This document shows positions 431-38,612 of a DNA stretch of 64,000 bases, in pieces. Origin of the DNA: Escherichia coli. GTDB lineage: Bacteria; Pseudomonadota; Gammaproteobacteria; Enterobacterales; Enterobacteriaceae. A program made the translations under genes and the position numbers. The stretch lies in assembly GCF_024502345.1 (NCBI RefSeq), contig NZ_JALDNN010000001.1. The stretch is one strand, 5' to 3'. Numbering within the stretch: the stretch's first letter is position 1; the number at the start of each line of letters is the position of its first letter. Under the pieces are notes generated by a model. That model saw only the letters and a list, made by a program, of their open reading frames with translations, did not search any database and was not told the DNA's origin.

Positions 431-1015
431 TTAACGGTAATCCAGCGTTACGTTAACGACAGCGTCTGCTTCCCCTGGGGTGATTTCTGATGCTTCAACG
501 GTTGATACGTAGTAAGCGATGAGGTCAACATTGACAATACCATTGGAGTCCGCTGGGATCTGATAAACCGTGTTATCATTCCCCATAGCATTCAGTGGCA
601 TAAGGTTTCCGCTTTCCGCATCGTCAATACGGATACCCACACCTGTTGCCGCTGTGCCAGCAAAAGAGCCCACTTTTGCCAGATTAGGGAAGTTAGGGAC
701 GGTGCCATTATCCCGCGTTTCCAGCCATAAACGGAAAGACGCTTCAACGTTGCCGTTATCGTGCTCCCACCCAGTCACTGGGCAGTTAACTAAAGGAATA
801 GTGAATGGAATTTTTGGGCTACGATCGCCAACAGAACGAAACTGTTCGGCATTATAGTGACCAAGAGCAACTTCAATTTTCTTATCAGAGTCATTGATTT
901 CACAAGCGGATTTTAAAATCTCGCCATCAAAAACTATTTCACCATCGGTTGCAGCGGCATTACCTGCGAAAAGCGCAAGTAAGCCCACAATAGCTGTTTT
1001 TGTAACTTTATTCAT
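431..1015 (-). CDS. yraH: Fimbrial-like adhesin subunit
   Basis: ORF track 194 aa with signal peptide (MNKVTKTAIVGLLALFAGNAAA) and C-terminal fimbrial-subunit pattern; AT-rich upstream region. Confidence 0.85.
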   Translation of the reverse strand: MNKVTKTAIVGLLALFAGNAAATDGEIVFDGEILKSACEINDSDKKIEVALGHYNAEQFRSVGDRSPKIPFTIPLVNCPVTGWEHDNGNVEASFRLWLETRDNGTVPNFPNLAKVGSFAGTAATGVGIRIDDAESGNLMPLNAMGNDNTVYQIPADSNGIVNVDLIAYYVSTVEASEITPGEADAVVNVTLDYR

Positions 1016-7938: not shown

Positions 7939-8076
7939 ATCCCTTCCTCGACCGGACATTCTTCATGGCAGCGGTCTAACTCGTCCACCAGACTGGTCAG
8001 CCCACGATGTCCACACTCCAGCGCCTGTACTCGGAATTCTTCACCGCTTAACCCTTCGCGCTCCAGCACCATCTCC
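7935..8076 (-). pseudogene. agaF: Remnant 3' end of PTS IIA(Aga) gene agaF (about the last 45 codons)
   Basis: Frame ...LEMVLEREGLSGEEFRVQALECGHRGLTSLVDELDRCHEECPVEEGI-stop resembles a mannose-type IIA C-terminus; its stop overlaps the agaA start codon (ATGA). Confidence 0.5.
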
Positions 8077-8241
8077 AGTACCGCCGGTTAAAATACCGGT
8101 ATGCAGATCGCCAAGTACCAGCCCGACTAACGGGCCGAGGACCACCGGGCGGTGCATATGGGTTAAGCCGTTAAACATATCCAGGCCAGCGATAAAGGCG
8201 ATAATGCCCAACGCGAATGCCTGCAACAGACTGATTTCCAT
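8041..8241 (-). pseudogene. agaW: Truncated PTS IIC(Aga) gene agaW: first ~54 codons, then 12 out-of-frame codons and a stop
   Basis: ORF track 66 aa MEISLLQAFALGIIAFIAGLDMFNGLTHMHRPVVLGPLVGLVLGDLHTGILTGG then TGDGAGARRVKR; far too short for a IIC protein. Confidence 0.7.
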
Positions 8242-36355: not shown

Positions 36356-36712
36356 TTAATTTGAACCAAACTTCGGATCGTTTCCGTAACGATTGCTGCC
36401 AGAAGTACCTTCTGTGCAGAAAAAAACCAGAAGCACGAGCCAACCAATAAACGGAACAAAAAAGAGCAAGGCCCAGGCACCTGAACGGTCGGTATCGTGT
36501 AAGCGACGGATAGCAAGCGCAAGGACGGGAAGGAAGGTTGCCAGCAAATAAAGCATAGACAGATATGGAAGCTCCAGACCTAAAATCAATTGAATGACAT
36601 TGATAATAGCGCCGACGATGGCGTTAATCAGAGTAAACATCCAGTACTCTTTACGACGTGCGCGACCAGAGAAACCAACATAATTTTTTAATACGGATAA
36701 ATACCACTGCAT
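36356..36712 (-). CDS. yhaI: DUF805 inner-membrane protein YhaI
   Basis: ORF track 118 aa; paralog of the disrupted yhaH. Confidence 0.88.
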   Translation of the reverse strand: MQWYLSVLKNYVGFSGRARRKEYWMFTLINAIVGAIINVIQLILGLELPYLSMLYLLATFLPVLALAIRRLHDTDRSGAWALLFFVPFIGWLVLLVFFCTEGTSGSNRYGNDPKFGSN

Positions 36713-36953: not shown

Positions 36954-37171
36954 TTAAGGTTCCAGTTTTGGATCAGGTCCAAAGCGGTTTTCGCCTGGCG
37001 TACCCGCCTGGCAGTTAAAGACGATGATAATAAGCCAGCCGATAAACGGGATTAAGAACAGCAGTGCCCACCACGCCGAGCGGTCGGTGTCGTGCAGGCG
37101 GCGGAACTGAACCGCCCACCACGGTAAAAACACCAGAATACCGTAGATTGTCGTCAGGATGCCTTCGCCAC
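36954..37171 (-). pseudogene. yhaH: yhaH, 3' portion (DUF805 membrane protein), cut off from its 5' end by IS903
   Basis: Minus frame ...ILTTIYGILVFLPWWAVQFRRLHDTDRSAWWALLFLIPFIGWLIIIVFNCQAGTPGENRFGPDPKLEP-stop; abuts the IS inverted repeat. Confidence 0.75.
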
Positions 37172-38228
37172 GGCTTTGTTGAATAAATCGAACTTTTGCT
37201 GAGTTGAAGGATCAGATCACGTATCTTCCCGACAACGCAGACCGTTCCGTGGCAAAGCAAAAGTTCAAAATCACCAACTGGCCCACCTACAATAAAGCCC
37301 TCATCAACCGTGGCTCCATAACTTTCTGGCTGGATGATGAAGCTATTCAGGCCTGGTATGAGTCAGCAACACCTTCTTCACGAGGCAGACCTCAGCGCTA
37401 TTCTGACCTTGCCATCACGACTGTGCTGGTCATTAAACGCGTATTCAGGCTGACCCTGCGCGCTGCGCAGGGCTTTATTGATTCCATTTTTTCTCTGATG
37501 AACGTTCCGCTACGCTGCCCGGATTACAGCTGTGTCAGCAGGCGGGCAAAGTCGGTTAATGTCAGTTTCAAAACGCCCACCCGGGGTGAAATCGCACACC
37601 TGGTAATTGATTCCACCGGGCTGAAGGTCTTCGGTGAAGGCGAGTGGAAAGTCAAAAAGCATGGCCAGGAACGCCGCCGTATCTGGCGTAAGCTGCATCT
37701 CGCCGTTGACAGTAAAACACATGAAATCATCTGCGCTGACCTGTCGCTGAACAACGTTACGGACTCAGAGGCCTTCCCCGGGTTAATCCGGCAAACCCAC
37801 CGGAAAATCAGGTCAGCCGCCGCCGATGGCGCTTACGATACCCGGCTATGTCACGATGAACTGCGGCGTAAGAAAATCAGCGCGCTTATCCCTCCCCGAA
37901 AAGGTGCGGGTTACTGGCCCGGTGAATATGCAGACCGTAACCGTGCAGTGGCTAATCAGCGAATGACCGGGAGTAATGCGCGGTGGAAATGGACAACAGA
38001 TTACAACCGTCGCTCGATAGCGGAAACGGCGATGTACCGGGTAAAACAGCTGTTCGGGGGTTCACTGACACTGCGTGACTACGATGGTCAGGTTGCAGAG
38101 GCTATGGCCCTGGTACGAGCGCTGAACAAAATGACGAAAGCAGGTATGCCTGAAAGCGTGCGTATTGCCTGAAAACACAACCCGCTACGGGGGAGACTTA
38201 CCCGAAATCTGATTTATTCAACAAAGCC
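37172..38228 (+). mobile_element. IS903-type insertion sequence, second copy, sequence-identical to the first and in opposite orientation; 9-bp target duplication CTTCGCCAC
   Basis: Same 18-bp inverted repeats; identical transposase ORF; direct repeat cttcgccac at 37163-37171 and 38229-38237. Confidence 0.9.
37249..38172 (+). CDS. IS903 transposase (DDE, IS5 family)
   Basis: ORF track 37204..38172; protein identical to the 20727..21695 ORF. Confidence 0.9.
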   Translation: MAKQKFKITNWPTYNKALINRGSITFWLDDEAIQAWYESATPSSRGRPQRYSDLAITTVLVIKRVFRLTLRAAQGFIDSIFSLMNVPLRCPDYSCVSRRAKSVNVSFKTPTRGEIAHLVIDSTGLKVFGEGEWKVKKHGQERRRIWRKLHLAVDSKTHEIICADLSLNNVTDSEAFPGLIRQTHRKIRSAAADGAYDTRLCHDELRRKKISALIPPRKGAGYWPGEYADRNRAVANQRMTGSNARWKWTTDYNRRSIAETAMYRVKQLFGGSLTLRDYDGQVAEAMALVRALNKMTKAGMPESVRIA

Positions 38229-38385
38229 CTTCGCCACCAGCGCGTTGCCAGCCTAACATTTTATCCAGCAGCCCCAGCACGAACGTAAAGATGATGTTGA
38301 CCAGAATAAACATCCAGTACTCTTTGCGCCGCGCACGACCCCGGAAACCGACATAATTTTTTAGTACTTTCAGATACCAGTCCAT
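38229..38385 (-). pseudogene. yhaH: yhaH, 5' portion (MDWYLKVLKNYVGFRGRARRKEYWMFILVNIIFTFVLGLLDKMLGWQRAGGEG)
   Basis: ORF track 38218..38406; joins in frame to the 36954..37171 fragment after removal of the IS and one duplication copy (121 aa total). Confidence 0.75.
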
Positions 38386-38515: not shown

Positions 38516-38612
38516 TGCCAGATGCGCTACGCTTATCTGGCCTACGCGGCCTTTGCAACATATTGAATATAAAAGTTTTGTAGGTTTGATAAGGCGTTCA
38601 TGCCGCATCCGA
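38516..38612. repeat. REP pair (BIME)
   Basis: gccagatgcgctacgcttatctggcctac ... gtaggtttgataaggcgttcatgccgcatccgac. Confidence 0.65.

Follow-up and report, generated by a model that had tools for sequence, protein, structure and literature searches.

Insertion sequences of the IS903 group move by an established cut-and-paste mechanism, and under the ISfinder convention an element is assigned to a named prototype as an isoform when the two share at least 95% nucleotide identity. IS903 and IS903B, which belong to the IS903 group of the IS5 family, are 1,057 bp long and are flanked by 9-bp direct repeats (PMC12670165, PMC10513040, PMC9769513), and the mutual identity of IS102, IS602 and IS903 has been put at more than 94% (PMC12670165). 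The consequences of IS903B insertions have been documented in Klebsiella, in which the knockout of mgrB leads to colistin resistance and the knockouts of wcaJ and wbaZ to phage resistance (PMC10513040, PMC9769513).

The gene of interest here, yhaH, has been studied in Salmonella, where its mRNA has been validated as being targeted by the sRNA SdsR and protein levels rise toward stationary phase (PMC5137417). We analyzed a 64,000-nucleotide stretch of an Escherichia coli assembly (GCF_024502345.1, contig NZ_JALDNN010000001.1), hereafter the window, for which an original prediction made from the sequence alone had proposed that an IS903-type element disrupts yhaH. We consider it highly probable that a recent insertion of IS903B, independent of a further copy in yhaB, split yhaH and created a null allele. 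The original prediction held on every point. The event is of an already-known kind, a known insertion sequence (IS) causing an ordinary gene knockout.

Results

A Complete IS903B Isoform within yhaH

The element, its boundaries and its counterpart elsewhere in the window are located as follows.

37163..37171: left copy of the 9-bp target-site duplication, CTTCGCCAC, present as a single copy in the uninterrupted reference genome
37172..38228, plus strand: complete IS903B isoform of 1,057 bp (IS5 family, IS903 group), with 0 mismatches to the other copy in the window
37172..37189, plus strand: left terminal inverted repeat (IRL), GGCTTTGTTGAATAAATC
37204..38172, plus strand: intact transposase ORF, 322 aa from a TTG start, which is also the start used by PGAP
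38211..38228, minus strand: right terminal inverted repeat (IRR), matching IRL at 18 of 18 positions
38229..38237: right copy of the 9-bp target-site duplication, CTTCGCCAC
20671..21727 (20662..21736 with its duplication), minus strand: the other, identical IS903B copy, inserted in yhaB

The inverted repeats are perfect over all 18 bp, and the two ends diverge past position 18. The window contains the repeat sequence four times, at both ends of both copies, with zero occurrences expected in shuffled sequence. The original prediction had equated positions 37172–38228 with the reverse complement of 20671–21727, and aligning the two segments, each of 1,057 bp, gave 0 mismatches; the identity between the copies ends exactly at the element boundaries.

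The predicted 9-bp direct repeat was likewise found on both sides of the element, at 37163–37171 and 38229–38237, and both of its copies abut the element ends directly. By our own arithmetic, a 9-bp match at fixed positions has a chance probability of ~4^-9, or 4e-6. The state of the site before the insertion was represented by E. coli F9792, in which the window flanks map to 3346075–3349824 (left) and 3342311–3346083 (right). In that genome, where the site is uninterrupted and contains one CTTCGCCAC, the two flank matches share exactly 9 bp. The duplicated segment corresponds to nucleotides 149–157 of yhaH and places the IS after the first base of codon 53, which sharpens the earlier estimate of a split after approximately codon 52 to an insertion within codon 53.

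As a prototype for comparison, we used the IS903B in Tn2680 of plasmid Rts1 (NC_003905), located through PMC12670165. The earlier description of the element as IS903-type could be refined to the IS903B isoform specifically, the nucleotide identity to the Rts1/Tn2680 prototype being 97.2%. The window element was also 100% identical to many copies on E. coli chromosomes and plasmids, which PGAP annotates as "IS5-like element IS903B family transposase". Its length of ~1,057 bp, 18-bp repeats, 9-bp duplication, single DDE-transposase ORF and identity of at least 95% are those of the IS903 group. Given the identity to the prototype and to the annotated copies and the agreement with the published dimensions, the alignments identify the element as an IS903B isoform and not a new IS.

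The transposase scored 357.4 bits against the NCBIfam model NF033579 (IS5 family transposase; cut-off 140) and contains the Pfam domains DDE_Tnp_1_5 and DDE_Tnp_1 (PF13737, PF01609); the same ORF is annotated elsewhere as WP_000654812.1. An alternative GTG start at codon 16 of the ORF would give a product of 307 aa. Candidate DDE residues are present in the 322-aa protein as D136, D208 and E274, which we take to be the IS903 catalytic triad known as D121, D193 and E259 in the 307-aa numbering. The uninterrupted ORF and the intact ends are only suggestive of transposition activity.

Reconstruction of the Interrupted Gene and the State of Its Paralog

The two parts of yhaH and the adjacent features occupy the following positions.

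38218..38385, minus strand: yhaH 5' fragment, starting with the ATG at 38385–38383 and comprising 53 native codons followed by Leu-Cys-stop from the IS end, a 55-aa stub
36954..37171, minus strand: yhaH 3' fragment, from position 2 of codon 50 to the stop codon, without its own gene's promoter or start codon
36918..36940, minus strand: terminator-like hairpin followed by a T-run, between yhaH and yhaI and just downstream of yhaH (consensus match only)
36356..36712, minus strand: intact yhaI, 118 aa, DUF805

Deleting positions 37172–38237, that is, the IS and one repeat copy, produced a 366-nt ORF encoding 121 aa, as anticipated from the proposed in-frame rejoining of the fragments. Comparison with an uninterrupted gene gave the same answer, the reconstruction being identical to yhaH of F9792 (WP_000384145.1) at 366 of 366 nucleotides. 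The F9792 product is annotated as "DUF805 domain-containing protein", and the reconstructed YhaH matched Pfam DUF805 (PF05656) over residues 11–115 with an E value of 5.1e-35. The assignment as yhaH is based on this match and identity together with the conserved synteny yqjG-yhaH-yhaI-yhaJ. An NCBIfam search with YhaH and YhaI returned no match above the cut-off, the sub-threshold similarity of YhaH to VP0952_fam reaching 22.6 bits, and Pfam DUF805 is the sole family assignment for the two proteins. Upstream of yhaH, in the yqjG–yhaH intergenic region, REP-like palindromes were seen by eye at 38520–38610.

The 55-aa stub retains one hydrophobic segment, the first, and is missing the RRLHDTDRS region. 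This conserved region, which is found in YhaI too, is encoded by the 3' fragment together with the last hydrophobic segments; the fragment also contains a 59-aa ORF with a GTG start at 36954–37133. Since only a short stub can be made from the yhaH start codon and the conserved motif is cut off from the promoter and start codon, the gene structure indicates that the yhaH::IS903B allele is almost certainly null. For annotation, this means that yhaH should be recorded as a pseudogene interrupted by IS903B and its two fragments not as separate small proteins.

The original prediction that only one of the two DUF805 genes is inactivated agreed with our comparison, in which yhaI was intact and its product identical to the annotated YhaI at 118 of 118 residues. 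YhaI matches DUF805 and shares 56% identity with YhaH. Because yhaI lies beyond the terminator-like hairpin, its expression is probably unaffected as well, and a polar effect of the insertion appears unlikely from the arrangement of the locus.

Relationship between the Two Copies

The second identical copy was correctly predicted to have the opposite orientation: the transposase is encoded on the minus strand in the yhaB copy and on the plus strand in the yhaH copy. The yhaB copy has its own 9-bp duplication, GATTGAAGG, at 20662–20670 and 21728–21736, and splits yhaB between yhaC and tdcR; the interrupted yhaB rejoins perfectly. Measured from their outer edges, the two inverted copies span 17,558 bp, with 15,444 bp between them. 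Collinearity with F9792, in a single orientation, extends from position 1447 to 64000 of the window, across and between both IS copies, and the segment between them, carrying tdcR, tdcA-G, cyuPA, yhaL, yhaK, yhaJ and yhaI, is native in both position and orientation.

Identical copies in inverted orientation are the geometry of Tn903, and composite transposons formed by IS903B have been documented (PMC9769513). We therefore considered a Tn903-like composite transposon inserted as a unit over the outer span, or an inversion of the segment by recombination between the copies. Insertion as a unit predicts a single duplication common to both outer ends, and after an inversion the members of the duplication pairs would be exchanged; instead, each copy is flanked by its own matched pair, GATTGAAGG in yhaB and CTTCGCCAC in yhaH. 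A composite transposon would also carry foreign cargo, whereas the inner 15,444 bp are collinear with F9792, and both interrupted genes rejoin perfectly. On the separate target duplications and the native synteny, we rejected both forms of this scenario and consider either extremely improbable. Given a distinct target duplication at each copy and the collinearity of the intervening 15.4 kb, the comparison points to two independent simple insertions, with no unit transposition and no inversion. Probably, one copy gave rise to the other or a common donor supplied both.

Identical repeats are also a classic source of misassembly, and a repeat copy could in principle have been misplaced in yhaH. 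Such an error would not generate a precise 9-bp duplication at the exact IS termini, nor would it yield flanks from which a perfect ORF can be restored, and both features were found at either copy. We regard an assembly artefact as a very improbable source of the yhaH insertion, and retain two genuine, independent insertions as the explanation of the locus.

In the vicinity of the yhaB copy, the yhaC/yhaB segment at 18875–20671 was 93.4% identical to F9792, compared with 98–99.5% in the flanking DNA, and is thus locally hypervariable. The rnpB gene (RNase P RNA, class A) at 18351–18727 is intact (318.6 bits) and lies ~2 kb from this copy.

Several further differences from F9792 and repeat structures were recorded elsewhere in the window. 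Positions 1–1447 are not collinear with F9792 and include a 194-aa ORF (431–1015, minus strand) with sub-threshold similarity to chaperone-usher fimbrial subunits, among them LpfA, FimF and FimA. In the aga cluster, the window lacks ~1.77 kb at ~8062–8080 relative to F9792. The absent DNA comprises the whole of agaE together with the 3' portion of agaW and the 5' portion of agaF; at the junction, 19 bp are shared by the two alignment blocks, and the deletion end points appear not to coincide with those of the K-12 agaW'-'agaA deletion. The alx–sstT spacer at 50919–51358 is ~440 bp long, in comparison with ~220 bp in F9792, and had no megablast match; within it, ~250 bp are GC-rich and include internal palindromes. 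Between ygjK and fadH, at 58408–58986, a 100-bp REP/BIME-type unit is repeated 5.8 times in tandem, and five of the units score at or above the Rfam gathering threshold for naRNA4/CssrE (RF02564).

Occurrence among Genomes and Age of the Insertions

The element itself occurs widely on plasmids from Klebsiella, Escherichia, Enterobacter and Salmonella, and a related element was found in 1,993 of the 5,426 complete E. coli genomes, at up to 47 places per genome. The left junction at yhaH was absent from all 5,426 complete E. coli genomes, as was the yhaB junction, and a 29-nt junction pattern had no match in the GTDB species-representative genomes. The best genome matches to the flanks were only 99.3–99.7% identical. 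The yhaH site was uninterrupted in 5,385 of the complete genomes (99.2%); at most 41 genomes were without a continuous match over the site, and ~31 of these show a split locus.

The absence of the junctions from other genomes and the zero divergence between the copies together suggest that both insertions are recent events and private to this strain, and we think this the probable situation. The identity of the copies could also reflect gene conversion rather than recency. An older origin of the yhaB copy, shared with other genomes, was considered and rejected, its junction being absent from the 5,426 genomes.

A single genome, that of the bullfrog isolate E. coli ES3, carries a different IS5-family element near yhaB–tdcR (NZ_CM184350.1, 632195–633212). 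The element is 91% identical, matched in two joined pieces, and could represent a separate IS903-group insertion close to the same site.

Discussion

The features of the locus are consistent with the following course of events. An intact IS903B would have transposed into the chromosomal yhaH of an E. coli strain, its DDE transposase binding the 18-bp ends and joining them to a target cut with a 9-bp stagger. Gap repair would then have duplicated CTTCGCCAC, and yhaH codons 1–53 would have become separated from the remainder, so that the promoter-proximal part would encode only the 55-aa stub. We infer the chemistry of this mechanism from the family to which the element belongs, whereas the anatomy of the insertion can be read directly from the DNA. 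The strain would, on this account, carry an active or recently active IS903B.

The loss of YhaH might also have been selected for. In E. coli TK001, mutation of yhaH abolished susceptibility to two Stephanstirmvirinae phages, ΦWec188 and ΦWec190, and the susceptibility returned upon complementation (bioRxiv 10.1101/2024.11.29.626071; 10.1101/2025.02.05.636633). As YhaH is thus reported to be a host factor for these phages, its knockout could confer phage resistance, and yhaH::IS903B could be an adaptive allele protecting the cell from phages that need this inner-membrane protein. In favour of this reading, Klebsiella is documented to have become phage resistant by the insertion of IS903B into wcaJ and wbaZ (PMC9769513), and yhaH is uninterrupted in 99.2% of the complete E. 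coli genomes. The phage link, however, comes from one research group and one host strain, and the at most 41 of 5,426 genomes without a continuous yhaH site, ~31 of them split, amount to no obvious enrichment. Moreover, the second IS copy landed in yhaB, a gene that has no such connection to phages, so that the insertion needs no cause beyond random IS activity. We therefore consider selection by phages unlikely, though not negligible. This reading is compatible with the structural explanation given above and differs from it on the question of selection only.

If selection had nevertheless been involved, it would reveal an ecological role for yhaH, an uncharacterised and near-universally conserved E. 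coli gene. If the dependence of phages on YhaH is general, the natural knockout would provide a ready-made test strain.

The pair of copies may have consequences of its own. Being identical and inverted, they are a potential substrate for an inversion of 15.4 kb, and the tdc and cyu operons (tdc-cyu-yhaJKL) could become mobilisable or invertible as a Tn903-like unit of 17.6 kb. Future mobilisation or inversion of the segment is thus possible, in addition to the two simple insertions by which we explain its present state.

Among the known systems, the closest counterpart of the window element is the IS903B of Rts1, with which it shares the length of 1,057 bp, the same 18-bp ends, the 9-bp duplication and the single DDE ORF. 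The two differ by 28 substitutions and 2 small gaps, and at the stated 97.2% nucleotide identity their transposases agree at 319 of 322 residues, the differences being Y7H, K171N and S204A (322-aa numbering). IS102 of pSC101 and IS903 of Tn903 belong to the same IS903 group and have the same length and end structure; in a direct alignment to IS102, the nucleotide identity was 92.6% and 304 of 322 transposase residues were identical. The alignments run from 1 to 1057, from which it follows that the Rts1 IS903B and the pSC101 IS102 have the same ends as the window element.

The Klebsiella knockouts resemble the present case in involving the same element and the interruption of a gene with 9-bp direct repeats; they differ in that the target here is yhaH of E. 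coli and the knockout is known from its sequence alone. A Tn903-type composite transposon resembles the wider locus in that two inverted IS903-group copies bracket a segment. Unlike in such a transposon, no duplication is common to the outer ends here, and the DNA between the copies belongs to the native chromosome and lies in its original place.
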